From a phage: a stretch of DNA of 64,000 nucleotides. A model generated the notes under the pieces. It ran no database searches and was not told the origin of the DNA. It saw only the letters and a list, made by a program, of their open reading frames with translations. The DNA lies in NCBI GenBank assembly GCA_019326865.1, contig GCA_019326865.1_4101.1. One strand, 5' to 3'. This document shows, piece after piece, positions 12,431-62,430 of this stretch; the stretch's first letter is position 1, and each line of letters opens with the position of its first letter. The translations under genes and the position numbers were made by a program.

Positions 12431-12437
12431 AAAGTAC

Positions 12438-12465
12438 TTGCATAGTACTTAGATTTAAGTATAAT
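12438..12465 (+). promoter_or_regulatory. sigma70-like promoter with 5' leader hairpin
   Basis: TTGCAT-16nt-TATAAT; GAGGGGGAAATGGTTCTCCCTCC hairpin. Confidence 0.55.
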
Positions 12466-12519
12466 GTTTTTCATAGAGAGGGGGAAATGGTTCTCCCTCC
12501 TAAATTAAGGAGTTTTATC

Positions 12520-14252: not shown

Positions 14253-14464
14253 TTATTCTAGAAAAATCATATCAATATACTGAACGCATCGCTGCCAGAC
14301 AACTTGAAATCCTCATAATATACGAAGAGACTTCTGATTTAAACTTAGCCGAGGTATTGGAAAATGAAATACTTTTGGGTGCATTCTTGGGAACAGACTA
14401 TCAGGAGTATTATGAGGAAAAGTATTTGTCATCTCTTGAGAAATACGTCAGGAGCAAACTATGA
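14249..14464 (+). CDS. family A paralog, hypothetical
   Basis: famA LGTDYQEYYE; ATGA-coupled. Confidence 0.6.
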   Translation: MIILEKSYQYTERIAARQLEILIIYEETSDLNLAEVLENEILLGAFLGTDYQEYYEEKYLSSLEKYVRSKL

Positions 14465-14688
14465 AACATTTAAGTAATATAGAGAAGAATAAAATTATCA
14501 TTGCTGTAATAAACAAATATTTTACACTTCCACAAAAAGAATGTTTATCTATAAGGGAACACAGGATAAACACCACCGAGATTCGCATGTTGGCTGTACT
14601 GGGGACTAACTTCCAAGAAGGCTATGTTCATGAGCACATCGTTGCACTCACTAATTACATAATGGACAAATGCAATGAACATCATTAA
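14461..14688 (+). CDS. family A paralog, hypothetical
   Basis: famA LGTNFQEGYV. Confidence 0.6.
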   Translation: MKHLSNIEKNKIIIAVINKYFTLPQKECLSIREHRINTTEIRMLAVLGTNFQEGYVHEHIVALTNYIMDKCNEHH

Positions 14689-14899
14689 TAACTTTGAATA
14701 CGAGGCCCGTGTTAAGAGTGCCAGAAAAAAAGAGAACACCATTTACTTCACTATGATGTACTTACAATGGACTGAAATTGAAGAAAAGGTTGCTGAAGTA
14801 TGGATGTTGGAATTCATGGGGACGCAGTATCAGAATAGGTTTGCGGGTGAGTATATCAATGTTCTTATGAAACAAATAGAAAGGAAGGAAAAGAACTAA
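14675..14899 (+). CDS. family A paralog, hypothetical
   Basis: famA MGTQYQNRFA. Confidence 0.55.
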   Translation: MNIINNFEYEARVKSARKKENTIYFTMMYLQWTEIEEKVAEVWMLEFMGTQYQNRFAGEYINVLMKQIERKEKN

Positions 14900-14988
14900 T
14901 GGAGGGATGCTGTACTTTATTGGAACTTTTATATATTCATGAACACATAGTTGCCCTCACAAATCTAATAAAGGATAAATGTAAATGA
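14899..14988 (+). pseudogene. truncated family A remnant (29 codons)
   Basis: encodes MEGCCTLLELLYIHEHIVALTNLIKDKCK, matching only the C-terminal end of 14461..14688. Confidence 0.45.
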
Positions 14989-15242
14989 AACACTTGACTG
15001 ATGATGAACATGAAACTATAATTCGTAAACTAACCCCCATCACAAGGATAGTCTACGGTGATCCCAGCCTCACATGGAACCAAATGCGAGCTAAAGTTAA
15101 TGAGCTATGGTTGCTGTACTTTATGGGGACTCAATATCAAGATAAGTTTTGCACAGAATATATCGAACAATTAACGAATGTTATACAGGATAAACTAAAT
15201 GAACGAATTGTGGAAAAATATGAAAACTTTATCAAGCATTGA
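14985..15242 (+). CDS. family A paralog, hypothetical
   Basis: famA MGTQYQDKFC; N-terminus MKHLTDDEH shared with 17780. Confidence 0.6.
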   Translation: MKHLTDDEHETIIRKLTPITRIVYGDPSLTWNQMRAKVNELWLLYFMGTQYQDKFCTEYIEQLTNVIQDKLNERIVEKYENFIKH

Positions 15243-15471
15243 GTATCAGACTGCCCTCTTCTCTCTTCTAAACACCCTCCGCACGAACAATAAACTTTAT
15301 AATTCACGTGAAGCTGATATTGTCAACGCTGATGTATATCTTAATAAATTTATAGGGACTAACTATCAAGAACTGTTTGTTTTACGATATATCTCTGCAC
15401 TAAGAAACGAAATATCAGATAAAACCCGCCAAGCCAGAAGAGAATGGAAGAGACAATGCAACAAAGACTAA
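15199..15471 (+). CDS. family A paralog, hypothetical
   Basis: famA IGTNYQELFV; start may be ATG 15220. Confidence 0.55.
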   Translation: MNELWKNMKTLSSIEYQTALFSLLNTLRTNNKLYNSREADIVNADVYLNKFIGTNYQELFVLRYISALRNEISDKTRQARREWKRQCNKD

Positions 15472-15707
15472 ATCACAAAATGTATTGTAAACTATTACAG
15501 AATCTAGGACAAAAACACTATGATACAGTATCTGAAATATTACCCTATGATATCATGCGTTTAATTCATAGTGAGGCAGAGATGCTTGTACTGATGACCG
15601 GTACTGATAAAACAGCAATCACCAGATCGATAGAGCAATATATTGATGCACACTGTCAATGTATTAGAACTGAGATATGGAGGCGAGTAAATGAAAGTAC
15701 TGAATGA
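15444..15707 (+). CDS. family A-like divergent paralog, hypothetical
   Basis: position in array; degenerate motif MTGTDKTAI. Confidence 0.5.
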   Translation: MEETMQQRLNHKMYCKLLQNLGQKHYDTVSEILPYDIMRLIHSEAEMLVLMTGTDKTAITRSIEQYIDAHCQCIRTEIWRRVNESTE

Positions 15708-15906
15708 GTATCAGTATCATTGGAGGTTACAAACTATAAGAGGGAAAGTTGTTAGTATTTCTTTAGACAAGTCTATTGCACAAGAGGACAAATGTGTTAT
15801 AATAGCTGAAATGAAGTTGGGTGTATTTGTAGGAACAAACTATCAAAACATCTACACTGACGTATTATTAAGTGCCTTACGCAACAAGGTGTTATCCAGA
15901 GAATGA
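15691..15906 (+). CDS. family A paralog, hypothetical
   Basis: famA VGTNYQNIYT. Confidence 0.6.
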   Translation: MKVLNEYQYHWRLQTIRGKVVSISLDKSIAQEDKCVIIAEMKLGVFVGTNYQNIYTDVLLSALRNKVLSRE

Positions 15907-16121
15907 GAAAATTAATAGGTTACGAATATGTTAAGCTTCTGAAAACCTGTAGTATTAGCAGGGTAAAGATTCAATCTGATAAGAGTATTCCTGTTGAACT
16001 AAAGTACGCAATGATGGCTGAACTTTATGTAGGTGCACTATTGGGGACAAACTATCAACAAATGTATGTAGACCTATGGGTTGACGCTCTACTGAAAGAG
16101 GTCCAAAGTAAATGCAAATGA
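15903..16121 (+). CDS. family A paralog, hypothetical
   Basis: famA LGTNYQQMYV; ATGA-coupled. Confidence 0.6.
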   Translation: MRKLIGYEYVKLLKTCSISRVKIQSDKSIPVELKYAMMAELYVGALLGTNYQQMYVDLWVDALLKEVQSKCK

Positions 16122-16333
16122 TTCATTTATCTTACTATGAATATCAAAAACGTTTAAATGCATCAAGGGATATAAGGATTAAAATCTACAATAACAAAAG
16201 ATTGAAATCTGAAGCCAAAAAAATCAAAATGATAGAAGCTGAATTATGCAACTTCCTTGGGACGAACTATCAGGATGATAAGGTAACAAACTATCTTAGA
16301 GAACTAATGATTAGTATCAAGAGTAAATGTTAG
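16112..16333 (+). CDS. family A paralog, hypothetical
   Basis: famA LGTNYQDDKV. Confidence 0.6.
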   Translation: MQMIHLSYYEYQKRLNASRDIRIKIYNNKRLKSEAKKIKMIEAELCNFLGTNYQDDKVTNYLRELMISIKSKC

Positions 16334-16337
16334 GCAG

Positions 16338-16595
16338 ATGTACATGAAAATGATTAAATTATCTCAAGCAAAATATAAAGAACGCCTGGAAAAAATTACA
16401 CCTAGACTTAATGAAATCCATCACGGAGAAGTCATTAAACACGGAAATAAGATGATTATGAAACTTGAGTTAAAGGTGGGTGCATTCATAGGAACAAACT
16501 ATCAGGAGTATTATGTAGATGAATACATAATCGCACTTAAGAGATACATTGGAAGAAAACTATATCTACAAACTAAAGAATTGTATTGCAAATAA
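16338..16595 (+). CDS. family A paralog, hypothetical
   Basis: famA IGTNYQEYYV. Confidence 0.6.
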   Translation: MYMKMIKLSQAKYKERLEKITPRLNEIHHGEVIKHGNKMIMKLELKVGAFIGTNYQEYYVDEYIIALKRYIGRKLYLQTKELYCK

Positions 16596-16876
16596 ATGCA
16601 AGGATAATGAATATGAAAATGATCAATTTAAGTAAAGATGAATATACCGAGCGTATGACAAAAATTACGCACAAACGTAATACAATCTATCACAACCCAG
16701 AAATTCAACACAGTAAGAAAATGATTATGATGCGTGAGTTAAAGATGGGTGTATTCTTGGGAACAAACTATCAAGATACAGAAGTAAATCGCTTAATCGC
16801 GGAGTTACTACTGGAAATCAGAGGTAAGCTGTACTTTCATCAAATGACCCAACCACTGAGGTGTACTAAGAAATGA
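16586..16876 (+). CDS. family A paralog, hypothetical
   Basis: famA LGTNYQDTEV. Confidence 0.6.
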   Translation: MQINARIMNMKMINLSKDEYTERMTKITHKRNTIYHNPEIQHSKKMIMMRELKMGVFLGTNYQDTEVNRLIAELLLEIRGKLYFHQMTQPLRCTKK

Positions 16877-17088
16877 TCAACATCACATTGCAAGAAAGAT
16901 TCATCCGAATCAACTATGCAATTACCAAATTAGATGCTACTATAGGATTCCAAAGTCTACCGTTCCAAACAAGAATGATATTAGAGTGCGAAGCTAAATT
17001 GGGTGTACTGTTAGGAACGCAACACCAACAACGATATGTGGAAATCTGGATTGATCTTTTAACCCAAAATGTACATGAGAAAATGTAA
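16873..17088 (+). CDS. family A paralog, hypothetical
   Basis: famA LGTQHQQRYV; ATGA-coupled. Confidence 0.6.
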   Translation: MINITLQERFIRINYAITKLDATIGFQSLPFQTRMILECEAKLGVLLGTQHQQRYVEIWIDLLTQNVHEKM

Positions 17089-17325
17089 ATGAAAAATGAA
17101 ATGATATACTTAACGAATGAAGAGTTTCAAGAGAAGATGTTAAAAATCTATGATAATACTCTTGAGTACGTTCCAAATCAATCAATATATGAAGTGTCTG
17201 CGAATGTATTATTTCAGAAGCTACCATACGTTCTTGGAACGGATAAACAAGAATTTATGGTCAAAAATATGATTGAACATCTTATGATGAGTATTAAGGA
17301 AAAAGTGAATGCAAAAGAAAAATGA
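17089..17325 (+). CDS. family A paralog, hypothetical
   Basis: famA LGTDKQEFMV. Confidence 0.6.
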   Translation: MKNEMIYLTNEEFQEKMLKIYDNTLEYVPNQSIYEVSANVLFQKLPYVLGTDKQEFMVKNMIEHLMMSIKEKVNAKEK

Positions 17326-17572
17326 AATGATATACTTAACACCTGCTGAGTTAACAGAAAGACTAGTTAAATCCAGAAGATATACAAATCAACTTCCTCA
17401 CAACCCAAATCAAACCCCAGCGGAAAGGAGTGCAGAAGTTTTATTCCAATCACTACCATACCTTCTTGGAACTAATAGACAAGAGTATCATATCGAACGT
17501 ATAATTAAATATCTTAAAATTACTATTAAGGAAAAAGTAAATGCTCAAGAATTTAAAAATCCTAACAGTTAA
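17309..17572 (+). CDS. family A paralog, hypothetical
   Basis: famA LGTNRQEYHI; N-terminus near-identical to 17089. Confidence 0.6.
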   Translation: MQKKNEMIYLTPAELTERLVKSRRYTNQLPHNPNQTPAERSAEVLFQSLPYLLGTNRQEYHIERIIKYLKITIKEKVNAQEFKNPNS

Positions 17573-17783
17573 TGAATATCATAAGATTGTAATGAAAACT
17601 AATAGTGCAATTTCTAAAAAATCAAACCCAAAGTACATACTGGAACACACATTTGAAGAACGTCAATTAGCTTTAGTTGAAGCAAAACTTCTTGCACTCT
17701 TAGGAACAAACTATCAGGAAGAATACATCAGAAAACTAATATACCTTTTAACTAAACACATCAGGAAAAGAAAAAAAGCATGA
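17541..17783 (+). CDS. family A paralog, hypothetical
   Basis: famA LGTNYQEEYI. Confidence 0.6.
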   Translation: MLKNLKILTVNEYHKIVMKTNSAISKKSNPKYILEHTFEERQLALVEAKLLALLGTNYQEEYIRKLIYLLTKHIRKRKKA

Positions 17784-18010
17784 AGCACTTGACAGATGAT
17801 GAACATGGGCTTATAGTAATGGATGTAATCAACATCGAATACAAAAAGTTGATACGCTATCGTTGTTATGAAGATAAGCAACTAGTTCTAGCAGAACAGA
17901 AGTTGTTTCGACTCTTAAACACAAACTTCCAAGCACAATACGAAGAATCGTATATGTACCTTTTGGCGAGGAAAGCAAAAAGAGATTATGAAAATTTTAA
18001 GCAAAGGTGA
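17780..18010 (+). CDS. family A paralog, hypothetical
   Basis: famA LNTNFQAQYE; ATGA-coupled. Confidence 0.6.
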   Translation: MKHLTDDEHGLIVMDVINIEYKKLIRYRCYEDKQLVLAEQKLFRLLNTNFQAQYEESYMYLLARKAKRDYENFKQR

Positions 18011-18209
18011 TTCAGTAATATTACTTATAGAGAGTTCAAATAAATTCTTAAACATAACACTGTCTGATATAGATGAAGATGATAAAGAAGTACTGAGAGC
18101 AGATTTAAGAGTACTGTTACATCTCGGAACAAACCTACAAGAAGAATATGTAGAGTACTACATTGATGAACTTAAAGAATCAGTACTGAGAAGATGCAAA
18201 TGCGAATGA
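17988..18209 (+). CDS. family A paralog, hypothetical
   Basis: famA LGTNLQEEYV. Confidence 0.6.
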   Translation: MKILSKGDSVILLIESSNKFLNITLSDIDEDDKEVLRADLRVLLHLGTNLQEEYVEYYIDELKESVLRRCKCE

Positions 18210-18421
18210 TTACCGACGAAGAATACCTAACAATTATAAATGGATTGTTTTTGAAGTTGTTTGTTATTAACACATCAGATATACCAGATATGGATAAAAT
18301 TATTAAGAGAAATGAAATCTATGTTCTAGCTACCCTGGGAACTAACTATCAAGAATGCAATATTAATGATTATATTAATACACTTAAAGGAGCGATTGAA
18401 CTAAAATGCCAAAACCACTAG
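18194..18421 (+). CDS. family A paralog, hypothetical
   Basis: famA LGTNYQECNI. Confidence 0.6.
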   Translation: MQMRMITDEEYLTIINGLFLKLFVINTSDIPDMDKIIKRNEIYVLATLGTNYQECNINDYINTLKGAIELKCQNH

Positions 18422-18621
18422 GAACAGCAGAATACATTGAACTCATGGGATTACACTTCTCATCCTTTCAGAAACTTATGCGAGAATCAAAGAATGATTT
18501 AGAATATACCATCAGAGGTTCAGATTTAAGAATGCTTCTCACCCTAGACACAGATTCCCAAGAGAGATTTGTCAATGAGCATATTAGAGCACTTTTAATG
18601 GAAATTAAAAGTAAACTATGA
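18406..18621 (+). CDS. family A paralog, hypothetical
   Basis: famA LDTDSQERFV. Confidence 0.6.
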   Translation: MPKPLGTAEYIELMGLHFSSFQKLMRESKNDLEYTIRGSDLRMLLTLDTDSQERFVNEHIRALLMEIKSKL

Positions 18622-18833
18622 AGGTAATATCAAACCAAGAGTACTTGGCACTATTCAGGAAGAATAATCACAAATATATGGCACTTGATTCAAGAACTGA
18701 TATAGGGGAACTTGAAAAAAATCTTTTGCGTTCAGAGATGATAGTACTGACACTCTTAGGAACACAACATCAAGAGAGAACTGTTGATTCATATATTGAG
18801 ATTCTTAAGAAGCTTATACAGGAAAAACTATGA
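18618..18833 (+). CDS. family A paralog, hypothetical
   Basis: famA LGTQHQERTV; ATGA-coupled. Confidence 0.6.
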   Translation: MKVISNQEYLALFRKNNHKYMALDSRTDIGELEKNLLRSEMIVLTLLGTQHQERTVDSYIEILKKLIQEKL

Positions 18834-19060
18834 GAATCATAACACAAACAGACATATTTAAGTTAGCAAGGGAACATACATCTGAAATTGATGCTATAGT
18901 ATCAAAAAGTTACAATGACCCTTATACACAAGATGTGCACTACAATGAATTATGGGTGTATATACTTTTAGGTACAAATTATCAAGAGCAAGCAGTACAG
19001 AAGTATTTGGCAGCTTTAAGTACTGCTACTGCTAATAGTATAGGTATTAAAAAATGCTAG
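18830..19060 (+). CDS. family A paralog, hypothetical
   Basis: famA LGTNYQEQAV; ATGA-coupled. Confidence 0.6.
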   Translation: MRIITQTDIFKLAREHTSEIDAIVSKSYNDPYTQDVHYNELWVYILLGTNYQEQAVQKYLAALSTATANSIGIKKC

Positions 19061-19290
19061 TACTGACAGAACTAGAAATGTATCATAGATTTAATAAGTA
19101 CTATCATTTACTTAAGCCTATACAGAGGATTAAATGTCCATTTGAAGAGAAACAGGTATTAATTTATGAGCATAAGTTATTTGTATCATTAGGTACGAAT
19201 GAACAAGAGTATTATTTGAAGTTGTACTTAATTACTTTAATTGAATTGATTAATCACAAAACACAGAAAGCTAAGAAATCTAAAAAATGA
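19054..19290 (+). CDS. family A paralog, hypothetical
   Basis: famA LGTNEQEYYL. Confidence 0.6.
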   Translation: MLVLTELEMYHRFNKYYHLLKPIQRIKCPFEEKQVLIYEHKLFVSLGTNEQEYYLKLYLITLIELINHKTQKAKKSKK

Positions 19291-19625
19291 AAACTAATAT
19301 TCAACTCAAGGTATACATATCTTATGAATCTATATACATCAAATGCAGTCTATGTAAAGATGTAATGGATTATAAAGGTAAGCCATTCACAATTACTTAC
19401 AGTCTAACAGGAGGCTTTTATATATCTTTTGTTGATTACGAAAATAAAATATACAAGCACATTGATATTAAAGATTTAAGTACCTTGTCAGATGAGGAAT
19501 ACTTTCAAGAATCATTAGTATGGGATTTAGAGTTTCCTATGACATTAGTACACAAAATGATAGTACTAATGAAAGAAACTAAACCTGAGCCGAGTGGTTA
19601 TGAAGAATTCATTATTGAGTATTAA
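19287..19625 (+). CDS. family B paralog (acidic-FQxS motif), hypothetical
   Basis: famB SDEEYFQESLVWD; sits inside family A array. Confidence 0.6.
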   Translation: MKTNIQLKVYISYESIYIKCSLCKDVMDYKGKPFTITYSLTGGFYISFVDYENKIYKHIDIKDLSTLSDEEYFQESLVWDLEFPMTLVHKMIVLMKETKPEPSGYEEFIIEY

Positions 19626-19637
19626 GAGTACTGATAT

Positions 19638-19853
19638 ATGAAAAGATTATCATACAAAGATTACAGTAAACTTATCAGTACTTTACAACCAGAAATTAGA
19701 AGAATTAATTATCTTCCTATATCTAACGAAGAACGTGTAGTACTGAAAAATGAGTTAATATTAAAACGCACAGTAGGTACTAACTATCAAGATAATAGTG
19801 TTTGCGATTTAATTAGAGGGTTAATGATCACAATAAAGGCCAAGTGCTATTGA
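19638..19853 (+). CDS. family A paralog, hypothetical
   Basis: famA VGTNYQDNSV. Confidence 0.6.
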   Translation: MKRLSYKDYSKLISTLQPEIRRINYLPISNEERVVLKNELILKRTVGTNYQDNSVCDLIRGLMITIKAKCY

Positions 19854-19859
19854 CAGTAC

Positions 19860-19888
19860 TTGACGGAGCTTTTCATTACTGATATAGT
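19860..19888 (+). promoter_or_regulatory. sigma70-like promoter
   Basis: TTGACG-17nt-TATAGT upstream of 19918. Confidence 0.45.
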
Positions 19889-19917
19889 ATACTAACGTTA
19901 ATCATAGGGTAGAAATT

Positions 19918-20163
19918 ATGTTAAAATTTTTAAATTTCCTTATCGTCTTGTGTATTGTTCTTGGGATTGCACCGTTTGTACTGGTGTATATGGATTCAGA
20001 TGAAATGCAAAAGATGAATTGCACAAAGACGGGACAGAGTAGAGAAGAGACGATTCTTATGCCTGTTACTGTTATTGTTAATAATATGCCCATTACAAAC
20101 ATGGTCCCTACCCTAACGACAACGTACCAGTACTCTTGTACAGACGGGGAGAGGTGGAGATGA
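19918..20163 (+). CDS. hypothetical membrane protein (81 aa)
   Basis: ORF track; N-terminal hydrophobic helix FLNFLIVLCIVLGIAPFVLVY. Confidence 0.55.
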   Translation: MLKFLNFLIVLCIVLGIAPFVLVYMDSDEMQKMNCTKTGQSREETILMPVTVIVNNMPITNMVPTLTTTYQYSCTDGERWR

Positions 20164-20480
20164 AATTTAATATAGCAAAAACATCGAATGTATGTATATT
20201 TGGTTATGCAGAAGAGTTAGGTGATATTGACATTCTTTTGTACAAAAAGGATGGTGTTATGCATTTCAAGTACCAGGATGAAGAGGCAGACAATTATCTT
20301 TTGCCTAATTTAGTACAAATGCAGGAAGAGGAATTATTCCAGTACAGCTTAGTATATGACATTGATATTTGCACGATGCCAGTACTAATTAATATTCAAA
20401 AAGTGATGCTCGATGTGTTTGATAGGCTAATACAAGGCACACAAGGAAGAACCATATATGTCAATGTACAAGACAATTAA
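20136..20480 (+). CDS. family B paralog, hypothetical
   Basis: famB QEEELFQYSLVYD. Confidence 0.6.
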   Translation: MYRRGEVEMKFNIAKTSNVCIFGYAEELGDIDILLYKKDGVMHFKYQDEEADNYLLPNLVQMQEEELFQYSLVYDIDICTMPVLINIQKVMLDVFDRLIQGTQGRTIYVNVQDN

Positions 20481-20673
20481 TCAAGAATGGAAGAATCAAA
20501 AGTACAGAGAATTCAATAGGAATTTTACAAAAGACGAATTGAATATAAAAACAACAGAATTTGATATGTTTATTTTTCTCGGAACACGTTCTCAGGAGCA
20601 ATTTGTTCATTATTATATAAATTCGTTGCGAGCGGAGATAGTATGCAAAACAAAGGGTATTATAAAAAGGTAA
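20458..20673 (+). CDS. family A paralog, hypothetical
   Basis: famA LGTRSQEQFV. Confidence 0.55.
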   Translation: MSMYKTINQEWKNQKYREFNRNFTKDELNIKTTEFDMFIFLGTRSQEQFVHYYINSLRAEIVCKTKGIIKR

Positions 20674-20909
20674 ACCAACATTTGTACGCTACAAAGTACA
20701 GGGATTTTTGTTTAAAGGGTGGTGATGAAGATTTTTCTTTGCGATTATCAGAATTTAATCTGTTATTTTATCTTGGTACATCGGAACAAGAAGAAATGGC
20801 ACAGAAATTTCTCAATCACCTTGTACAAAAAATTAATATGCAAATTTTGATGCTTAAGTTACAGGATGAGATAAATGAATATGAACCCAACAATAGTACA
20901 GGATCTTAA
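20643..20909 (+). CDS. family A paralog, hypothetical
   Basis: famA LGTSEQEEMA. Confidence 0.55.
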   Translation: MQNKGYYKKVNQHLYATKYRDFCLKGGDEDFSLRLSEFNLLFYLGTSEQEEMAQKFLNHLVQKINMQILMLKLQDEINEYEPNNSTGS

Positions 20910-31771: not shown

Positions 31772-32304
31772 TGAAAGTTAACATTAATGACTTTGATGCA
31801 TTACAAGATTTATCAAAAAAGATTCGCACCATCGTACCAGTACTTAAAAAATGCAGTACTGGTTTAATCGATCCTAGTTCTGTTGTCAATGAGAAGTACA
31901 ATTTTCATCGTGTATTACAGGGGACAGGTGCATTTCAGAAGTGTGAGGTACGTGAGAAACATGTAATTGATACATCGTTGTTTTCTATTGGTGCACCTGT
32001 GTCAAACAATACTATTTTCCTGGATGCATCTGGAAATATTCAACAATTAACATTTAAGAAAAGGAAAAAGAATAATAACATTGGTGTGTACGCGATGAAG
32101 TGGGGACAGCCAGCGTTGATGCGTGACATTCACATTCCTAAGTACAATTTCAATGCATTTGAAGAACAGTGTTTTCAACTTTCTTGTACTGACCCTGACT
32201 ATGCTATCATTCAATTCTATATGGAATTGCAGATTGCATTTAATAGTAATTTGTATATTAACTTATTGGCAATGAACATAGATGAAGTATTCAAAAACAT
32301 TTAA
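31768..32304 (+). CDS. family B paralog, hypothetical
   Basis: famB AFEEQCFQLSCTDPD; ATGA-coupled. Confidence 0.55.
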   Translation: MMKVNINDFDALQDLSKKIRTIVPVLKKCSTGLIDPSSVVNEKYNFHRVLQGTGAFQKCEVREKHVIDTSLFSIGAPVSNNTIFLDASGNIQQLTFKKRKKNNNIGVYAMKWGQPALMRDIHIPKYNFNAFEEQCFQLSCTDPDYAIIQFYMELQIAFNSNLYINLLAMNIDEVFKNI

Positions 32305-32500
32305 TCGAATTGAATACATGAGAACTGTGAGAGCGGTGTGGAATATATGGTACACTACTAAACCAAAAATGGATTACCATGATTTTAAGCTCTTGTTCTT
32401 TGTTGGCTCTAACAAACAGGATGTTGCAATGAAGGGTTATATTCAGCACTTACAGGAACTAATCCAGAAGAGAATATATGAAAATAATAGACCAAAATGA
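32282..32500 (+). CDS. family A paralog, hypothetical
   Basis: famA-like VGSNKQDVAM; stray copy inside family B array. Confidence 0.5.
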   Translation: MKYSKTFNRIEYMRTVRAVWNIWYTTKPKMDYHDFKLLFFVGSNKQDVAMKGYIQHLQELIQKRIYENNRPK

Positions 32501-32669
32501 CATTGCTAAACTATTCAATATATATTCTACTAGAATGATGCAAACAGATTCATATAGTACTAAATTCAAAGAGTTGAAAGTACTGATGTACTTGGGAACA
32601 CAATATCAGGAACAAGTTATTTTAGAATATATTAATTCATTAAAGAAGGATATCCGTGATGTACGATGA
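32478..32669 (+). CDS. family A paralog, hypothetical
   Basis: famA LGTQYQEQVI. Confidence 0.55.
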   Translation: MKIIDQNDIAKLFNIYSTRMMQTDSYSTKFKELKVLMYLGTQYQEQVILEYINSLKKDIRDVR

Positions 32670-56262: not shown

Positions 56263-56320
56263 TTTAAATCATGATATAATAATGGATAAGGAACAATAAC
56301 TAACACAAGGAGTGTGTAAA

Positions 56321-57049
56321 GTGCTTGACCGTATCCGTTTCGCTACAGAGATGGCGAATGAATTAAACATGGCAAATTTCCAAATGTTAACATCAGTAAT
56401 GGCTGAACATGCATGTGCTTATTCTGTAAGCGGGGTGCAGTGTGGTCAGGAAAATATGTTAGCAGATGTTTATAGTGAAGTTCAAAGTAAACAATATAGT
56501 GTAAAGACTTACAAGGACAAGTTTGTCAGTCTTTACATGAATGAAGATATTAAAGAAGATCGTAAATTCACTGATTTTATTATTGAACGTCGAGTATCGG
56601 GTGTATCTAATCCTAATGCATCAAGTGATGAAGTATTTGTGGAAGTACTTCAAGATATATATGAAAATGAATTGAAAAGTAAGAATCATTACAATGTACG
56701 TGAAACTAGCACAGTGCTCTTGGGATATGATGAAGACGAACAATATTATTATTTCCGTATGACTGAAGTTCCATTTGAATATAAATCACCAAACACCACA
56801 TCAGTTAAAGAATTTACTGAAAAAAGTAAAAATTACATGAAACATGAAGGTAATCGCTGTAGTGTGAATGGTTATGATGAAAATGGTGTTCATGTTTACG
56901 AGTGGATTCATCCTAACTGTCAGACATACACCCGTTGCTTGAAAAAACGTTATAATTTAGAAGAGCATGACTCATTCTATTTTAAGGTAAAGAAACAAGA
57001 TTACCGTCGCCCTGATGATTCTGAATTAATGGGGATGGTCTATTTCTAA
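56321..57049 (+). CDS. hypothetical protein (about 242 aa)
   Basis: track ORF starts GTG 56312 only 1 nt after SD AAGGAG; GTG 56321 has better spacing. Confidence 0.5.
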   Translation: MLDRIRFATEMANELNMANFQMLTSVMAEHACAYSVSGVQCGQENMLADVYSEVQSKQYSVKTYKDKFVSLYMNEDIKEDRKFTDFIIERRVSGVSNPNASSDEVFVEVLQDIYENELKSKNHYNVRETSTVLLGYDEDEQYYYFRMTEVPFEYKSPNTTSVKEFTEKSKNYMKHEGNRCSVNGYDENGVHVYEWIHPNCQTYTRCLKKRYNLEEHDSFYFKVKKQDYRRPDDSELMGMVYF

Positions 57050-57344: not shown

Positions 57345-57351
57345 AAATATA

Positions 57352-57376
57352 GGCCAGCGTTTGCTGGTCTTTTTTC
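57352..57376 (+). terminator. rho-independent terminator
   Basis: GGCCAGC-GTTT-GCTGGTC followed by TTTTTT. Confidence 0.65.
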
Positions 57377-57388: not shown

Positions 57389-57691
57389 ATGATCAGTATA
57401 GATTTAATTGATAGTACTATAAAAATGTTGGCTGATTTAGTGAGACAATCCAATGAAACTTTATACCAATCAATGTATAAAATGTTTGACCGATACATCA
57501 AGGATTGTAACATATCATTATATGGACTTGCTGTTGATATAGACGATTACTATGGTATTAATACTTCATATGAAACAGGAATTTTAATTGGTATTAATAT
57601 AAAGATGGGATATTATCCTTATTACTGTATAGGATTACCAGATAATACGTTGGTAGAATATCCAGCCAGTACTATTAAATTAAGAGGATAA
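57389..57691 (+). CDS. hypothetical protein (100 aa)
   Basis: ORF track. Confidence 0.5.
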   Translation: MISIDLIDSTIKMLADLVRQSNETLYQSMYKMFDRYIKDCNISLYGLAVDIDDYYGINTSYETGILIGINIKMGYYPYYCIGLPDNTLVEYPASTIKLRG

Positions 57692-57698: not shown

Positions 57699-58277
57699 AT
57701 GAATGTATTAGAATTAAGTACGAAGCTGATTAGTATGCGTAACGAGTGGTACGATTGGTTTTATAATGGTACTGATATGGATTTTTCAAAATATCCATTT
57801 ATGGAATCAGGATGTGATTCAAGATACCGCTGGTTGAGCAAAAGTGGTTCTGGTTTATTCATTCGTGTTGATGATAGTGGTCGAGGAATTATAAAAGATT
57901 TCATTCAAGTTGAAGAACTCGTCTATGATAATTGGGGTGATAACGATCCATACCTTGGAAATATGATTTATGTAAGTGAAAATGATTGCATATTCGTTAT
58001 CCAGCGTCATGGTGATTCTATGTTTTATGTAGCGGACAACAATACACCTGACGGTGCAGCAGCCGATGGACTTATGCCTAAGATTGATATATTGGAATTT
58101 GGATTACCTGAGCATTTTCAGATTAGTACTTTATACGATATCCCACCACTTGAGTTCTTTGAAGAATTTAAATTATACTACAATGAACTTCAAAAATTGA
58201 GTACTGAACATCGAATTGAAATAACAGTCAAGTACATAGATGGGACAAAATTAACCGATACGGGGATAGAATTTTGA
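57699..58277 (+). CDS. family B paralog (distal stray), hypothetical
   Basis: famB GLPEHFQISTLYDIPP. Confidence 0.55.
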   Translation: MNVLELSTKLISMRNEWYDWFYNGTDMDFSKYPFMESGCDSRYRWLSKSGSGLFIRVDDSGRGIIKDFIQVEELVYDNWGDNDPYLGNMIYVSENDCIFVIQRHGDSMFYVADNNTPDGAAADGLMPKIDILEFGLPEHFQISTLYDIPPLEFFEEFKLYYNELQKLSTEHRIEITVKYIDGTKLTDTGIEF

Positions 58278-58963
58278 TTAAAGATTTAGATAGAATTTTA
58301 TATGTACTAAGGGGTGTAATTACATTACATCCACACATCAATCGAATTGAAAGTACATTTCAGTTGGAGTCAAGAGAAACTCAATATTCACATATATCAA
58401 ATGTAGTTGGCTCACTTAGTACTGAAGACTCGCCTTACGATATTTGTGTATGTGAAGTACAACCAAGTTCGGATCTTGGATTTGCTATTTTTGATAAAAA
58501 TCAAAATCTCATTAGTATGTTTCAGTGCAATAATCCTTTTTGGAAAACATGCCTGTATCCAGAGTGGGCTATGCTTGATCCAACCAAGAGCACCATTAAA
58601 GTTTATGACTCTAAAAATGATGAAGTCGTTATTGATTTGGATGAGTCAATGTCCGAGGAAGAACACTTTCAGCTAATGATGATGCGTGCTATGCCTGAAT
58701 ACAATGCAATGATTAACACTGTGCAATACATTAAGGATACCATGCCATCATTGCGTACACATGAGTTTTGTCATCCGGTATTGTATGAACATTTAGATTT
58801 AGATTTCAGTACTATTAAATTTAAAGATAGTGTCATTGAGTATATCCAAGAGGTTACTAAATTCGATTTCATTAGTACAATGAATAATAACCCTGAAACA
58901 AATTTCAGACGACAATACAATGAATCTTTGTCTAATGGACGTGATACAAGTTGGTGGAAATAA
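58274..58963 (+). CDS. family B paralog (distal stray), hypothetical
   Basis: famB SEEEHFQLMMMRAMPE; ATGA-coupled. Confidence 0.55.
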   Translation: MIKDLDRILYVLRGVITLHPHINRIESTFQLESRETQYSHISNVVGSLSTEDSPYDICVCEVQPSSDLGFAIFDKNQNLISMFQCNNPFWKTCLYPEWAMLDPTKSTIKVYDSKNDEVVIDLDESMSEEEHFQLMMMRAMPEYNAMINTVQYIKDTMPSLRTHEFCHPVLYEHLDLDFSTIKFKDSVIEYIQEVTKFDFISTMNNNPETNFRRQYNESLSNGRDTSWWK

Positions 58964-58964
58964 T

Positions 58965-59228
58965 ATGAATATTCAAGATAGATTACAATTACTATACACT
59001 ATTGAACAGGCTGCTTTTGAACTTGTTAATAAAATCTCCGAAGAACTTCCCAAAGGAACTATAGTTCGTGTACGTGAGAGGGATTATGAATCTGGAGAAA
59101 TTGAAGAACTAGTACTGACCGTGAATAAAGTAACATACTATGAATCTGAGTTGGCTATCCAATGTAGATCGGAAGATGGTAAAATATACTATTATGACAC
59201 TGGTGTAGATATAGAGGTAATAAAATGA
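58965..59228 (+). CDS. hypothetical protein (87 aa)
   Basis: track ORF 58920..59228; start moved to ATG 58965 after upstream stop. Confidence 0.5.
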   Translation: MNIQDRLQLLYTIEQAAFELVNKISEELPKGTIVRVRERDYESGEIEELVLTVNKVTYYESELAIQCRSEDGKIYYYDTGVDIEVIK

Positions 59229-60367
59229 CCCTTTTGCAAATATATGAAGATTTAATGCACTTGTGCAATACAAACGATGCGTTCTTTTATGTGGATCATA
59301 AAAGTCCTGCTGGTGGAACGTATCGTGTATTCAGTTATCGTCTAGCATCATATACTGATTTCATGCAACCCAATGCATTAGAAACCCGTGGATCTATGTG
59401 GGAAATTGATGAAGAAGGTAATATGATTCGTTGTGCTGCTCGTACTATGAAAAAGTTCTTTAATGCTTACGAGAATCCTGCTACAATGTTCCCTGCTAAC
59501 ACCACATGCGATGACATTGCAGTAGTGATGCCTAAATTGGATGGTTCAGTGATCAGTACTTACCGTGACAATGATGGTGAGATTCGTTGTAAATCACATA
59601 CTGCATTGTATTCTGACCATGCGATTAACAGTACTCGACTTATTAACGAGAACCAGAATCTATATCAGTACATCGATGAAGCTGAACGTTTAGGTTACAC
59701 AGTTAATATGGAGTATACAAGCCCAGAGTACCGAATTGTATTACCGTATCAGGTAGAACAATTGTTTGTGCTGAACGTTCGTCATCGTGTAAGTGGTGAG
59801 TTGCTATGTGGTAAAGCATTACGTGATAAGTTTCCATGTCTTTCACAGTACAGCACTAATATGACAGGAAAAGATATTCATCACACTTTTCCTGTGCGAA
59901 ATTCATTCCGTGAAAGCGTTGATGAAGTTCATAAAATGCTTGACATTGAGGGTTTTGTTTGCATTTTAAAAGATGGGACAATGTGTAAAATAAAGACTGA
60001 CTGGTACAGTTCATTACATCTTACAAAAGATAGTATTATTATTGATTCTCATTTATATGAAGCTGTATTAAATGGTTCAAGTGATGATTTAAAACAATTG
60101 TTCAGTTCTGACGAATATGCTATGCAAAAGATATTAAGAATGGAACAGTTGGTTTTTTCGTGCTATAATGCATTACAAGATGAAGTAGAAAGCTTCGTCA
60201 ATGAACACAAGCACTTAGAGCGAAAGGAATTCGCATTGAAGGTTCAGACGTGCTTATCTAGTGAACTGAATCGTCAGGGCTTGGCATTTGCAATGTATAA
60301 TAATAAGAAAGTTGATTACAAAGATACACTTATCAAATACATGAAAATTATACTAAAAGATTTTTAG
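59225..60367 (+). CDS. rnlA: RNA ligase 1 (T4 RnlA-like)
   Basis: FFYVDHKSPAGGTYRVFSYRLASYTDFMQPNALETRGSMWEID aligns with the T4 Rnl1 N-terminus as recalled; nucleotidyl-lysine motif KLDGS; CILKDGTMCKIKTDWY as in T4. Confidence 0.85.
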   Translation: MTLLQIYEDLMHLCNTNDAFFYVDHKSPAGGTYRVFSYRLASYTDFMQPNALETRGSMWEIDEEGNMIRCAARTMKKFFNAYENPATMFPANTTCDDIAVVMPKLDGSVISTYRDNDGEIRCKSHTALYSDHAINSTRLINENQNLYQYIDEAERLGYTVNMEYTSPEYRIVLPYQVEQLFVLNVRHRVSGELLCGKALRDKFPCLSQYSTNMTGKDIHHTFPVRNSFRESVDEVHKMLDIEGFVCILKDGTMCKIKTDWYSSLHLTKDSIIIDSHLYEAVLNGSSDDLKQLFSSDEYAMQKILRMEQLVFSCYNALQDEVESFVNEHKHLERKEFALKVQTCLSSELNRQGLAFAMYNNKKVDYKDTLIKYMKIILKDF

Positions 60368-60397
60368 TACTAACTAGCCTAAGCACAAGGAGAAGTG

Positions 60398-60652
60398 ATG
60401 GCTAAACCTAAGTATAAAAATGACGGTTCCCTTTCTCCAACTGAGTTCAGGAAAATACAACAAGAAATCGATGAATTACAGCACAAACGCTCAATGAAAG
60501 GTGTGAAGATAAGTAAGAAGAGAATCGAGAATACTTTCGGATGTAGTAGTACTGAATATAAGAAGAAAAGGAAACCGAAGGGTGTTAAGCCGAGAATACA
60601 TGATGTAACTCGCTATACATCAAAACGTGAAAATAAATTTGATCCACTATAA
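60398..60652 (+). CDS. hypothetical basic protein (84 aa)
   Basis: track starts GTG 60395; ATG 60398 follows SD AAGGAGAA. Confidence 0.5.
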   Translation: MAKPKYKNDGSLSPTEFRKIQQEIDELQHKRSMKGVKISKKRIENTFGCSSTEYKKKRKPKGVKPRIHDVTRYTSKRENKFDPL

Positions 60653-60661
60653 GGAGTTCAT

Positions 60662-60892
60662 ATGAAAGTTGAAGTTCAGCATAGTATTGTTCAAGATATG
60701 TCTGTAGTTAAATTTCTTTCATTAAAAGATTACTTTAGATGTATCAAGTTCCTAGAAGAATCTCATTTAAAATGGACTCCATTAAAGTACAGTTCATCCA
60801 AAGACACTGCTAGTATTCGTTGTGATGAAGCTGTACTCGTAAAAATCTCTAAAAGATTTGGGATAGGTAAAGTGAATGAGCACAGTAAATGA
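60662..60892 (+). CDS. hypothetical protein (76 aa)
   Basis: ORF track; SD AAGGAG. Confidence 0.55.
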   Translation: MKVEVQHSIVQDMSVVKFLSLKDYFRCIKFLEESHLKWTPLKYSSSKDTASIRCDEAVLVKISKRFGIGKVNEHSK

Positions 60893-61130
60893 ACTAAAAT
60901 ACTACAACAAAATTGCGGATACGTTTATTACTCATTTATATGAAGAATTCAGTAGTATCCGCAAGGAATATACAGGTAAATGTATTTTATATAGTTCTTA
61001 TCTTAGTGGAAGAATTGAACGTGCTTACATTACTAAAGTGAAGTTTTCTGATGATTATCAATTACTATTTGAATTGGATGATTGTTTAGTCATTGAAGCT
61101 GATTTAATAGTAGATGTGCTGAACAATTGA
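60876..61130 (+). CDS. hypothetical protein (84 aa)
   Basis: ORF track. Confidence 0.5.
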   Translation: MSTVNELKYYNKIADTFITHLYEEFSSIRKEYTGKCILYSSYLSGRIERAYITKVKFSDDYQLLFELDDCLVIEADLIVDVLNN

Positions 61131-61136
61131 GGACAT

Positions 61137-61451
61137 ATGAATAAAGAACTTGCATATAAGGGTATCGAAAAGCTAAAGTTCGTTGAAAAGGAACTAATAG
61201 AATCAGTTGAAACAATGGTTGAAGATTACGTTTTTGATTTTAAGAAAACATTAATTGGATGTAAAGTCAAATGCTGGGATCATACCATTAGAGAATGGTT
61301 CAGTGCTATAATTCTTGATGTTAAAGTATCTCGAACTGGTATTGGTAACTTAGTAAATGGTGAATGCTTTGTATACACTGAATACAATAACGGTACAAGA
61401 CACCTTTCAAAAGGATGGCACAATCTCGAAGATGTAGAATTCATTGAGTAA
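61137..61451 (+). CDS. hypothetical protein (104 aa)
   Basis: ORF track; SD TGAGGA. Confidence 0.55.
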   Translation: MNKELAYKGIEKLKFVEKELIESVETMVEDYVFDFKKTLIGCKVKCWDHTIREWFSAIILDVKVSRTGIGNLVNGECFVYTEYNNGTRHLSKGWHNLEDVEFIE

Positions 61452-61463
61452 CAAGGAGTAATA

Positions 61464-62396
61464 ATGCCAACTATCACCTTAACAATTGGGTTGCCTGGGT
61501 GTGGTAAAACTACATGGGCAGTGCAAGAGATTAAAAACGCCAAATCTAAGACTATCAACATCAACCGTGATGATATTCGTGAATCTATGGCGGGGTCACA
61601 TGATGCTTACAAATTCAACGATGCTAATGAGCAGTACGTAACTACTTTACAGTTCAGTGCAGCAAATTTAGCAGCAGAGAATGGTTGGAACATCATCATA
61701 TCCGATACGAACCTTAAACAACATTTCCGTGATCTCTGGAAAGTATGGGCTAAAGATAATGATTATGATTACAAAGAAAAGAACTTCTATGATGATTTTG
61801 TACCTAATGAAGACCGTGGTGCAGATGTTCATGAATTCTTTAAGATTAAAGAGTTCGTAAAACTTTGTAAGAAATATAACCGCCAGCGTGAGCGTTCAGT
61901 ACAAGATAATATCATTGACACTATGGCAGATACTTACTATTATAGTAAAGCAATGCACATTGGTTACTATGGTAATTCAAGAGAAGCCGCTGTTATCGTT
62001 GATATTGACGGAACTCTTGCTCATAAATGGGGTCGTAATCCTTACGATGAAAGTACTGTACTACAAGATACACCAGATGAAGAAGTTATTTTGTCTATTA
62101 TCGCTGAAGCAGTTTTCCATAAACGTAAGATTATTGTAATGAGTGGGCGTACTGAAGGGTGTCGTGCAGACACAGAACAGTGGCTTAAGAATTGGGGTGT
62201 TCCTTACGATGCATTGTTTATGCGAGGCATCGATGATAAACGACCCGATGATGTGGTAAAATATGAGTTGTATATGAATAACGTCGTGCATCATTACGAT
62301 GTTAAAAAAGTATACGATGACAGATCACAAGTCGTATTCATGTGGCGTAAACTACTTGGATTAAAAGTGATGCAAGTTGCAGAAGGAAATTTCTGA
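61464..62396 (+). CDS. pnk: polynucleotide 5'-kinase/3'-phosphatase (T4 Pnk-like)
   Basis: P-loop GLPGCGKTT; NINRDDIRES; HAD phosphatase motif IVDIDGTLA; C-terminus WRKLLGLKVMQVAEGNF aligns with T4 Pnk as recalled. Confidence 0.85.
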   Translation: MPTITLTIGLPGCGKTTWAVQEIKNAKSKTININRDDIRESMAGSHDAYKFNDANEQYVTTLQFSAANLAAENGWNIIISDTNLKQHFRDLWKVWAKDNDYDYKEKNFYDDFVPNEDRGADVHEFFKIKEFVKLCKKYNRQRERSVQDNIIDTMADTYYYSKAMHIGYYGNSREAAVIVDIDGTLAHKWGRNPYDESTVLQDTPDEEVILSIIAEAVFHKRKIIVMSGRTEGCRADTEQWLKNWGVPYDALFMRGIDDKRPDDVVKYELYMNNVVHHYDVKKVYDDRSQVVFMWRKLLGLKVMQVAEGNF

Positions 62397-62403
62397 CACA
62401 AAA

Positions 62404-62430
62404 GGGATCAATGTATGATCCCTTTTTCTT
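62404..62430 (+). terminator. rho-independent terminator
   Basis: GGGATCA-ATGTA-TGATCCC followed by TTTTTC. Confidence 0.7.

Follow-up and report, generated by a model that had tools for sequence, protein, structure and literature searches.

A T4-type RNA ligase 1 and polynucleotide kinase-phosphatase pair in an Asteriusvirus jumbo coliphage, with two conserved small genes between the enzymes

In phage T4, a tRNA heal-and-seal system that counters PrrC is encoded by rnlA (gene 63), for RNA ligase 1, and pseT, for polynucleotide kinase-phosphatase, which enclose alc, pseT.3, pseT.2 and pseT.1 in this order. To our knowledge, none of these four interior genes acts in RNA repair. The KVP40-like Vibrio phage V09 has a bracket of the same kind and orientation as the locus described here, with RNA ligase 1, five small ORFs and pseT. 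Orthologs of both enzymes are encoded by the Rak2-like jumbo phages 121Q (gp438/gp443), PBECO4 (gp129/gp125), RaK2 (gp464/gp470) and UE-S1 (UES1_389/394). The RNA ligase 1 (Rnl1) and kinase-phosphatase (Pnk) pair itself is already known in this group, since it is annotated in UE-S1, 121Q and PBECO4, the RaK2 enzymes were termed RNA repair proteins in a 2013 paper (PMC3622015), and RNA-repair proteins have been described across jumbo phages by Iyer 2021 (PMC7824862).

Here, we analysed a 64-kb stretch of phage DNA (hereafter the window), which belongs to an Asteriusvirus jumbo coliphage of the 121Q/PBECO4 group and is 97.7% identical to UE-S1. The genome of this phage type measures ~350 kb, as against 169 kb for T4. 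The Rak2-like orthologs are 42–98% identical to those of the window in the same operon layout; there is no substantial difference between these phages and the window, which represents a further isolate of the same genus. About 159 small plus-strand ORFs fill the window at a coding density of 90%, Rnl1 and Pnk being the two longest. A sequence-only reading of this DNA had described the two enzymes as flanking four small unknown genes (here genes A–D), a description that is weakened because the whole window consists of small plus-strand ORFs. All six ORFs were found on the plus strand at the same coordinates as in that reading.

The ligase and the kinase-phosphatase

The ORF at 59225–60367 (plus strand, 380 aa) is, judging by its family matches and residues, an RNA ligase 1 of the T4 RnlA/gp63 family with an essentially intact active site. 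It is ~36% identical to the T4 enzyme and matches T4 Rnl1 in the PDB (2c5u, E=5.7e-58), RNA_lig_T4_1 (PF09511, 55.3 bits, cutoff 28.3) and, over residues 268–379, T4_Rnl1_C (PF20819, 62.5 bits, cutoff 27) in Pfam, the NCBIfam equivalog TIGR02308 (297.7 bits, cutoff 242.25) and PHROG 562 (E=7e-108). The predicted adenylylation lysine, K104, lies in a KLDGS motif, with K104-L-D106-G107-S108 aligned to T4 K99-E-D-G-S (motif I, KxDG), and motifs III, IV and V are all kept (E163, E242, G243, K255 and K257 for T4 E159, E227-G228, K240 and K242). The motif Ia lysine, T4 K119, is replaced by His125, as also in KP13-7, while K123 (T4 K117) is kept two residues before it; K119 is reportedly important in T4 Rnl1 according to mutagenesis by the Shuman lab. 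With the motif set otherwise complete, this substitution does not remove the predicted enzyme from the T4 RnlA family. The N-terminal ATP-contacting residues R55, K77 and F79 correspond to T4 R54, K75 and F77, of which R54 and K75 have described roles (PMC6379707). An all-helical C-terminal domain that is specific for Rnl1 gives specificity for tRNA anticodon loops (PMC6379707).

The ORF at 61464–62396 (plus strand, 310 aa) is predicted to be a T4-type polynucleotide 5′-kinase/3′-phosphatase (PseT/Pnkp family) in which nearly all catalytic residues are intact. It has two domains, an N-terminal P-loop kinase (residues 5–157, AAA_33, 50.4 bits) and a C-terminal DxDxT (HAD) phosphatase (residues 175–310, HAD_PNKP, 150.8 bits), both above the Pfam cutoff. 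At 34% identity to T4 PseT, it aligns over its full length to T4 Pnk (PDB 1ltq, E=7.8e-38), aligns also to Pnkp1 (4xrp) and matches PHROG 505 (E=2e-94). The kinase site comprises the P-loop GLPGCGKT with K15 and T16, followed by D36, R39 and D81, for which the T4 counterparts are K15, the general base D35, R38 and D85. The phosphatase site comprises D180-I-D182-G-T, R191, S227, R229, D262, K266, D285 and D286, the counterparts of T4 D165, D167, R176, S211, R213, D254, K258 and D277/D278; the roles of the T4 kinase and phosphatase residues have been described (PMC3592404). The column of the kinase transition-state arginine, T4 R126, holds Q141 in both the HMMER and the MAFFT alignment, which is uncertain here beside an insertion of ~20 aa; arginines stand on either side (R140 and R142), and the one a position downstream of Q141 is shared with KP13-7.

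These matches to Pfam, PHROG, PDB and NCBIfam families, together with the active-site residues, fully support the earlier identification of a T4-type Rnl1 and Pnk pair, and the similarity to T4 Rnl1 and Pnk in database searches is strong. The activity and tRNA specificity that we infer for the two proteins are drawn from their 34–36% identity to the T4 enzymes.

The transcription unit and its small genes

Rnl1 and Pnk lie on the same strand, 1.1 kb apart, and the densely packed genes of this run overlap or are separated by gaps of at most 27 nt, with no convincing terminator between them; one weak terminator-like hairpin lies within rnl1 (59559–59581). The unit ends at a strong intrinsic terminator (62400–62426, plus strand; 11-bp stem and T-run) that starts 4 nt past the pnk stop codon, is also annotated in UE-S1 and is kept in four genera, namely in the window, fHe-Yen9-04 (4645–4672 of locus L005), XaC1 (5713–5733 of locus L006) and KP13-7 (8287–8310 of locus L003). 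Its 5′ limit is likely another intrinsic terminator (57351–57370, plus strand; 8-bp stem with 5 GC pairs and a T-run), which closes the preceding transcription unit; equivalent terminators sit after a syntenic ORF of ~245 aa in fHe-Yen9-04 (1187–1207 of locus L005) and KP13-7 (3794–3818 of locus L003). Four genus-specific plus-strand ORFs (57389–57691, 57699–58277, 58274–58963 and 58941–59228) are probably co-transcribed with Rnl1, because they are placed between this upstream terminator and the ligase gene. They have no Pfam match and match only small PHROGs without an assigned function, and the loci of KP13-7, fHe-Yen9-04 and XaC1 contain no homolog of any of them; 58941–59228 weakly matches K4732 (E=0.004), the sole such match among the four. 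No promoter was identified for the rnl1-pnk unit, and near-consensus sigma70 promoters, abundant at 1–12.5 kb of the window, are absent from 52.3–64 kb.

Genes A–D are genuine: all are under purifying selection (dN/dS 0.03–0.19 against phage 121Q), three of the four have a PHROG family of their own, AAGGAG Shine-Dalgarno sites precede genes A and B as well as pnk, and the annotations of UE-S1 and 121Q carry the same gene coordinates. None of them has a sequence match in Pfam, NCBIfam or PDB. Gene A (60398–60652, plus strand; phrog_15306) encodes a very basic orphan protein of 84 aa (pI 10.2, K+R 29%, net charge +14) that is probably nucleic-acid-binding. It occurs in 62 phage records from several genera with P14, E16, R18, I20, D25, S32, G35 and V36 invariant, and its dN/dS of 0.027 (against 121Q) is the lowest in the block.

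Gene B (60662–60892, plus strand), conserved across the clade, encodes an orphan alpha/beta protein of 76 aa with a beta-beta-alpha-beta-beta-alpha fold, a dN/dS of 0.050 (against 121Q) and an invariant polar patch formed by H7, S8, Q11, D12, K17, Y43-S44-S45, S51, R53 and E56. In two genera, gene B overlaps the pnk start codon, which suggests translational coupling of the two. A search with its profile against 1.84 billion representatives returned matches only inside the jumbo-phage clade; homologs outside this clade were detectable for neither gene A nor gene B, and the published descriptions that we found of the RNA repair genes of Rak2-like phages mention neither. The closest folds to gene B are ACT and ferredoxin-like small alpha/beta domains (identity at most 18%), which differ from it in strand order. 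BMC shell proteins and DCoH reach equally good scores, so the likeness is that of a generic fold and not of a family. An assignment as ACT domain was rejected, as there was neither a sequence-profile match to ACT families nor a strong specific structural match.

Genes C and D are of a different, fast-turnover kind and may take part in host-specific conflicts. Gene C (60876–61130, plus strand; an acidic protein of 84 aa, dN/dS 0.19 against 121Q) has no PHROG, Pfam or NCBIfam match and occurs in 13 phage records only, all 121Q-like Escherichia phages; it is missing from PBECO4-type genomes, PBECO4 having three genes between the enzymes, and is a variable, dispensable filler gene. Gene D (61137–61451, plus strand; phrog_31355, an acidic, genus-specific protein of 104 aa, dN/dS 0.18 against 121Q) occurs in 32 records, all Escherichia phages, and forms a single cluster in a database of 5.8 billion proteins. 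Its records fall into two allele classes, 13 at ≥80% and 19 at <60% identity (mostly ~37%), the alleles being ~37% identical to each other; a single-sequence AF2 model was unusable (pLDDT 39.7). Neither C nor D can belong to the core of the repair module.

Across the jumbo-phage clade, the order Rnl1, gene A, gene B, Pnk and terminator is preserved while the neighbouring genes are replaced, and the phages that keep A and B with the enzymes span at least nine host genera. In the loci of KP13-7, fHe-Yen9-04 and XaC1, hardly any flanking ORF has a homolog in the window, but Rnl1, A, B and Pnk are all present in unchanged order; identities to Xanthomonas phage XaC1 are 57% for A and 63% for B, compared with 49% for Rnl1 and 42.5% for Pnk. 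Small ORFs are conserved more often inside the bracket (5/11) than outside it (1/36; Fisher p=0.0016, the three genomes not being independent). The dN/dS of the enzymes against 121Q is 0.062 for Rnl1 and 0.085 for Pnk, so that the constraint on genes A and B (0.03–0.05) equals or exceeds that on the enzymes. In fHe-Yen9-04 and XaC1 it is A and B that enclose the variable slot; in the window and KP13-7 the slot falls between B and pnk. The earlier suggestion that all small ORFs between the enzymes are candidate accessory or anti-defence factors therefore stands for genes A and B, which sit between the enzymes in an unchanged order in all genera examined and are under stronger purifying selection than any other gene of the block, and falls for gene C, given its 13 records and its absence from PBECO4-type genomes, and for gene D, given its two alleles and its restriction to Escherichia phages. 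Every clade member carries Rnl1, A, B and Pnk together, so co-occurrence adds no information on a link of A and B to repair; it is conserved position and constraint that make them candidates.

Proposed mechanism and alternatives

The locus is probably the Asteriusvirus jumbo-phage version of T4 heal-and-seal RNA repair, encoded in the 3′-terminal part of a single transcription unit, with genes A and B as stable parts and genes C and D outside the core. The P-loop kinase of Pnk would phosphorylate the 5′-OH using Lys15, with Asp36 as general base, and Rnl1 would adenylylate itself at Lys104, pass the AMP to the 5′-phosphate and seal the nick, steered to tRNA anticodon loops by its specific C-terminal domain. 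Basic gene A and small alpha/beta gene B, the latter ancestrally overlapping the pnk start, would be stable components of the unit, and genes C and D would be insertions that particular lineages acquired in a plastic slot, comparable to T4 alc and pseT.1-3. The sequence-only reading had further taken the pair to imply a host with a tRNA-cleaving defence. This does not follow: the pair is vertically inherited in a clade whose hosts belong to at least nine genera, and is found throughout T4-like phages as well (1643 phage records); it is therefore the mark of an old and general pressure and is uninformative about this particular host. The literature describes defences that target tRNAs as widespread in E. 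coli.

For genes A and B, we regard it as an evenly balanced question whether the gene order is merely historical, with a bracket from an ancestor shared with T4-like phages, an interior that collects unrelated small early genes, and A and B kept for an early function of their own (e.g., host takeover, nucleoid or ribosome binding) and not for RNA repair. This would agree with the interiors of T4 (alc, pseT.3, pseT.2 and pseT.1 at the same spot) and V09 (five other ORFs), none of which resembles A–D, with an interior that varies even within the clade as the variable slot moves, with the small unrelated ORFs that make up the whole window, and with A and B lacking an RNA-repair-related domain. 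However, A and B have held their position and order between the enzymes as far as the Xanthomonas phage, where the flanks are fully replaced, they are no less constrained than the enzymes, no terminator was found between them and pnk, and the overlap of B with the pnk start codon suggests that the two are translated together.

Within the block, only genes A and B qualify as credible candidate accessory factors, and they may be unrecognised partners of the enzyme pair, although caution is called for because the four interior genes of T4 are not known to act in RNA repair. It is possible, if rather unlikely, that Rak2-like phages have a four-component tRNA repair in which A would attach to the cleaved tRNA or keep the two halves in contact and B, ancestrally coupled to pnk translation, would associate with Pnk or Rnl1 as a subunit and link the healing step to the sealing step, or else inhibit the host nuclease. 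If so, A and B would be without precedent as accessory proteins of a phage Rnl1/Pnkp system.

That the pair acts on phage or host RNA outside counter-defence, in maturing the phage-encoded tRNAs or controlling their quality or in repair of collateral damage from phage nucleases, or that Pnk heals DNA ends, appears distinctly improbable. Relatives do encode tRNAs (eight in UE-S1), RaK2 has tRNAs and a CCA-adding enzyme (PMC3622015), and T4 Pnkp also works on DNA ends in vitro (PMC3592404), but repair of anticodon-nuclease damage is the only in vivo role demonstrated for the T4 orthologs (PMC3592404, PMC6379707). The 64-kb window contains neither a tRNA gene nor a known RNA family. T4 gp63 has two activities, RNA ligation and tail-fibre attachment, and it is highly improbable that the second is the main reason why the Rnl1 homolog has been retained: PHROG 562 and several GenBank records are named "RNA ligase and tail fiber protein attachment catalyst", but Rnl1 keeps all nucleotidyl-transferase motif residues needed for ligation except K119 (His) and has the tRNA-specificity C-terminal domain, the linkage of its gene to pnk is maintained throughout the clade, and Rak2-like phages have branched tail-fibre systems very unlike that of T4.

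Comparison with known systems

The enzyme pair adds nothing new, being a textbook counter-defence system that is annotated in the genus and has been discussed for jumbo phages. The value of the locus is comparative: two tiny orphan proteins are held between ligase and kinase-phosphatase amid the turnover of their neighbours, with a degree of conservation that equals or exceeds that of the enzymes, which leaves two candidates, not four, for asking whether phage RNA repair needs helpers.

The window shares with T4 the same two enzyme families, their domain architectures and active-site residues, and a layout on one strand with the ligase first, the kinase-phosphatase last and four small genes between. 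It differs from T4 in that the enzymes are only 34–36% identical, the kinase domain of Pnk has its ~20-aa insertion, Rnl1 has His in place of K119, and denA/nrdB do not lie upstream. BLASTP of genes A–D against T4 Alc, PseT.3, PseT.2 and PseT.1 gave no match at E<0.1, and the interior ORFs of V09 show a weak likeness to T4 PseT.3 and PseT.2 (E=0.002 and 0.003) but not to genes A–D. An rnlA gene, three to five small genes and pseT on one strand thus occur in T4 and a KVP40-like phage as well, with interior genes that are unrelated between lineages, and a bracket from rnlA to pseT with a plastic interior is common to T4-like, KVP40-like and Rak2-like phages.

Identity and probable activity of the repair enzymes

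Six tightly packed open reading frames (ORFs) occupy positions 59225–62396 on the plus strand of the window, spaced by at most 27 nt. They comprise an rnlA-type RNA ligase 1 (Rnl1; 59225–60367, 380 aa), four small interior genes referred to here as A (60398–60652, 84 aa), B (60662–60892, 76 aa), C (60876–61130, 84 aa), and D (61137–61451, 104 aa), and a pseT-type kinase/phosphatase (Pnk; 61464–62396, 310 aa). The end of B overlaps the start of C by 17 nt, and a Shine-Dalgarno sequence (AAGGAG) lies ahead of A, B, and the Pnk ORF. The ORFs fit exactly the coordinates of the sequence-only reading, which had named the outer two a T4-type repair pair; structure and Pfam matches bear this out for both proteins, each of which is significantly similar to its T4 counterpart, and for Rnl1 an NCBIfam equivalog does so as well.

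Rnl1 matched the T4 Rnl1 crystal structures with E=5.7e-58, contains both Pfam domains of the T4 Rnl1 family (RNA_lig_T4_1 and the Rnl1-specific C-domain T4_Rnl1_C), and passed the NCBIfam equivalog “T4 RnlA family RNA ligase” with 297.7 bits against a curated cutoff of 242.25. In the alignment with T4, the adenylylation lysine and motif I are intact (K104-L-D-G-S), and motif III (E163), motif IV (E242-G243), motif V (K255/K257), and the N-terminal ATP contacts (R55, K77, and F79) all match. The sole departure among the aligned T4 residues is K119, replaced by His125, a histidine also found in the Klebsiella jumbo phage KP13-7. The significance of T4 K119 is reportedly treated in the 2006 Rnl1 mutagenesis by Wang, Schwer, and Shuman.

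Pnk matched T4 Pnk (1ltq) over its full length with E=7.8e-38 and combines an AAA_33 kinase with a HAD_PNKP phosphatase domain (Pfam). Kept are the kinase residues of the P-loop (K15/T16), the general base D36, R39, and D81, as well as all essential residues of the phosphatase (D180, D182, S227, K266, D285/D286, R191, R229, and D262); the roles of the T4 Pnk active-site residues are given in PMC3592404. The column of T4 R126 holds Q141 between two arginines, where the alignment is uncertain next to an insertion of ~20 aa. This kinase-domain insertion relative to T4 Pnk (window 61772–61840, residues ~104–126), located just before the T4 R126 segment, is common to the jumbo-phage Pnk here and that of KP13-7.

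Since nearly all of the T4 active-site residues are kept, both enzymes are very probably active. By analogy with T4, Pnk would take off a 2′,3′-cyclic or 3′ phosphate via an aspartyl-phosphate intermediate and phosphorylate the 5′ end, after which AMP-dependent sealing would follow, with the C-domain of Rnl1 steering the ligase to tRNA anticodon loops.

Across the region, identity is 97.7% with Escherichia phage UE-S1 and ~92% with 121Q, G17, slurp01, and PBECO4, all of them Asteriusvirus jumbo coliphages of ~350 kb, whose records already carry the labels “RnlA family RNA ligase” and “3′-phosphatase, 5′-polynucleotide kinase”. Orthologs in phage RaK2 (gp464 and gp470) were described as “two RNA repair proteins” in 2013 (PMC3622015), rnlA is mentioned in the CBB paper, and Rnl1 and PNK-HAD enzymes that counter host attacks on tRNA have been catalogued across jumbo phages (Iyer et al. 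2021; PMC7824862). Given these annotations and this literature, the enzyme pair is already known, and we are highly confident that the locus belongs to the T4-type RNA heal-and-seal system, as an ordinary case that had been annotated before. It does not follow, as had been proposed, that the host uses a tRNA-cleaving defence, because the pair is inherited vertically in a clade whose hosts span many genera, and defences that target tRNA are widespread in general.

Probable transcription unit and genomic surroundings

A strong intrinsic terminator (62400–62426) begins 4 nt past the pnk stop, and equivalent terminators lie 5–9 nt past pnk in fHe-Yen9-04 (a phage of the same clade), the Xanthomonas phage XaC1, and KP13-7. 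The preceding plus-strand terminator of the window is at 57351–57370, and between the two only one weak hairpin was detected, at 59559–59581 inside rnl1, which we regard as a chance occurrence. In fHe-Yen9-04 and KP13-7, a terminator directly follows an ORF of ~245 aa, whereas in the window it comes one small ORF later. From this placement of terminators, the run of Rnl1, A, B, (C, D), and Pnk is the conserved 3′ part of what is probably a single operon.

The 245-aa ORF itself (56312–57049, phrog_16105), for which no Pfam or PDB match was found, has syntenic counterparts of 63–66% identity in KP13-7 and fHe-Yen9-04, ~2 kb upstream of Rnl1, and is among the very few other clade-conserved genes in the neighbourhood. 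The ten neighbouring ORFs gave neither a Pfam match nor a PHROG of known function, and no RlaP, 2H phosphoesterase, CCA-adding enzyme, or RtcB was found among them; the 64-kb window contains no tRNA genes or Rfam families.

No promoter was found for the Rnl1–Pnk unit. Its part of the window lacks the near-consensus sigma70 promoters that abound at 1–12.5 kb; the consensus cassettes are confined to 1–12.5 kb and two isolated sites. Within 1–12500, a conserved cassette recurs more than 20 times between genes on the plus strand (e.g., 546–626, 2965–3045, 7157–7232, 10571–10651, and 12416–12496) and consists of a near-consensus sigma70 promoter, AAAAAGTAyTTG(A/C)CA - N17 - GTATAAT, followed by TTACATC, a GGGGAA...TTCCCC hairpin, and a ribosome-binding site. 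Exact promoter matches number 21 in the window against 0.37 expected, 19 of them in the first 12.5 kb. This stretch resembles an immediate-early region, nearly every small gene there having its own host-type promoter and a conserved 5′-UTR hairpin. A longer repeat of ~126 nt without an Rfam match is present in three to four copies (2834–2969, 6562–6697, 9571–9706, and 11855–11956) and includes both a hairpin, GGGATTGACTCCGGTCAGTCCC, and a conserved element, ACTAGCCCACAGGGTGCGGGAGTGTATC (families D7, D9, and D12).

Paralogous genes are also found elsewhere in the window. A tandem array of ~30 small ORFs of 63–90 aa (BLASTP E<1e-3) spans 13419–20909, with a further part at 32282–32669, and a second family of 19 ORFs of 100–242 aa is scattered over ~22 kb (19287–41043). 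Smaller families lie at 53673/54524/54798, 1165/7526, 26118/38724, and 41961/42604.

Two classes of interior genes

All four small genes are genuine and under purifying selection: compared with 121Q, dN/dS is 0.027 for A, 0.050 for B, 0.19 for C, and 0.18 for D, alongside 0.062 for Rnl1 and 0.085 for Pnk. By distribution they split into two classes, A and B being clade-wide and C and D narrow.

C was found in 13 records only, all 121Q-like, and PBECO4-type genomes lack it and have three interior genes. D is restricted to Escherichia phages; its single-sequence AF2 model (pLDDT 39.7) was unusable, as just one homolog cluster exists. In Asteriusvirus genomes that otherwise share ~90% identity, D has two alleles with ~37% identity between them (13 records with at least 80% identity and 19 below 60%, mostly ~37%), as is typical where cassettes are exchanged or selection is diversifying. 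By eye, C, D, and flanking ORFs of ~85–100 aa had seemed to share an N-terminal helix, a “G-K-x-V” motif, and a beta-rich tail ending V-x-F-I. A single divergent superfamily was rejected: neither all-vs-all BLASTP nor iterative HMM searches linked them, and an HMM from the between-gene ORFs alone did not place the flanking ORFs above shuffled decoys.

A and B were detected in 62 and 71 phage records, respectively, with hosts from Escherichia, Klebsiella, Salmonella, Erwinia, Yersinia, Xanthomonas, Cronobacter, Serratia, and Pectobacterium. When every annotated ORF within ±3.5–5 kb in three distant relatives (KP13-7, fHe-Yen9-04, and XaC1) was compared with all window ORFs, almost only Rnl1, A, B, and Pnk were conserved, in constant order. 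They are the only conserved genes in XaC1, where A (57%) and B (63%) exceed Rnl1 (49%) and Pnk (42.5%) in identity. Pooled over the three, five of the 11 small ORFs inside the bracket (the span from rnlA to pseT) have a window homolog, against one of 36 outside (Fisher p=0.0016, a value that overstates independence as the genomes are related). The 13–19 nt by which B overlaps the pnk start codon in fHe-Yen9-04 and XaC1 suggest that the two were ancestrally coupled in translation; here, C and D are insertions between B and pnk.

A is strongly basic (pI 10.2, 29% Lys+Arg, net charge +14) and has a conserved N-terminal segment, P-x-E-x-R-x-I-x4-D-x6-S-x2-G-V, a make-up compatible with nucleic-acid binding. 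It forms five clusters in a large protein database and has no family match in Pfam or NCBIfam and none in the PDB; a weak hit to Pfam p25-alpha (E=0.009), below the cutoff, was taken as compositional. B is a clade-restricted orphan: it forms 32 clusters, each at least 61% identical, among 5.8 billion proteins, and an exhaustive search of 1.84 billion representatives with its profile yielded only three true clusters. Invariant residues occupy 22 of its positions and are often polar, and a confident AF2 model (pLDDT 84.6) shows a beta-beta-alpha-beta-beta-alpha sandwich. The sole return from BFVD was the RaK2 ortholog, and the fold assigns B no function; searches for remote homologs or similar folds gave no lead for either A or B.

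That A and B are early genes with an importance of their own, placed in a bracket conserved for historical reasons, strikes us as an evenly balanced proposition. The window holds ~159 small plus-strand ORFs covering 90% of the sequence, with Rnl1 and Pnk the two longest; a small gene without known function beside the enzymes is the default state here and so by itself no evidence of shared function. The proposal that the interior ORFs are accessory or anti-defence factors is reasonable only for A and B, which keep their place and order, are probably transcribed together with the enzymes, and are strongly constrained, and we entertain an accessory role of these two in repair as a tentative and rather doubtful option. 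C and D behave like fast-turnover fillers.

The bracket in T4 and other phages

The rnlA–pseT arrangement was absent from Caulobacter phage RB23, and pseT was not found in the 4.5 kb downstream of rnlA in Aeromonas phage Aeh1. T4 PseT.3 and PseT.2 weakly resemble interior ORFs of the KVP40-like Vibrio phage V09 (E=0.002 and 0.003, 26–27% identity), which lie between the ligase and kinase genes at 5956–6658 of the V09 locus (L008), compared with 6687–7336 of the T4 locus (L002; local coordinates). Retention of interior genes particular to a lineage may therefore extend to the bracket of T4-like phages.

T4 itself, with rnlA, alc, pseT.3, pseT.2, pseT.1, and pseT, resembles the window in order, strand, and the number of four small interior genes, and V09 has the same bracket with a ligase, five small ORFs, and pseT. 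The interior genes differ: homology of A–D to alc or pseT.1–3 was rejected, as no similarity was detected. Because the bracket is shared but its interior genes are not homologous, it is old and holds a separate gene set in each lineage.
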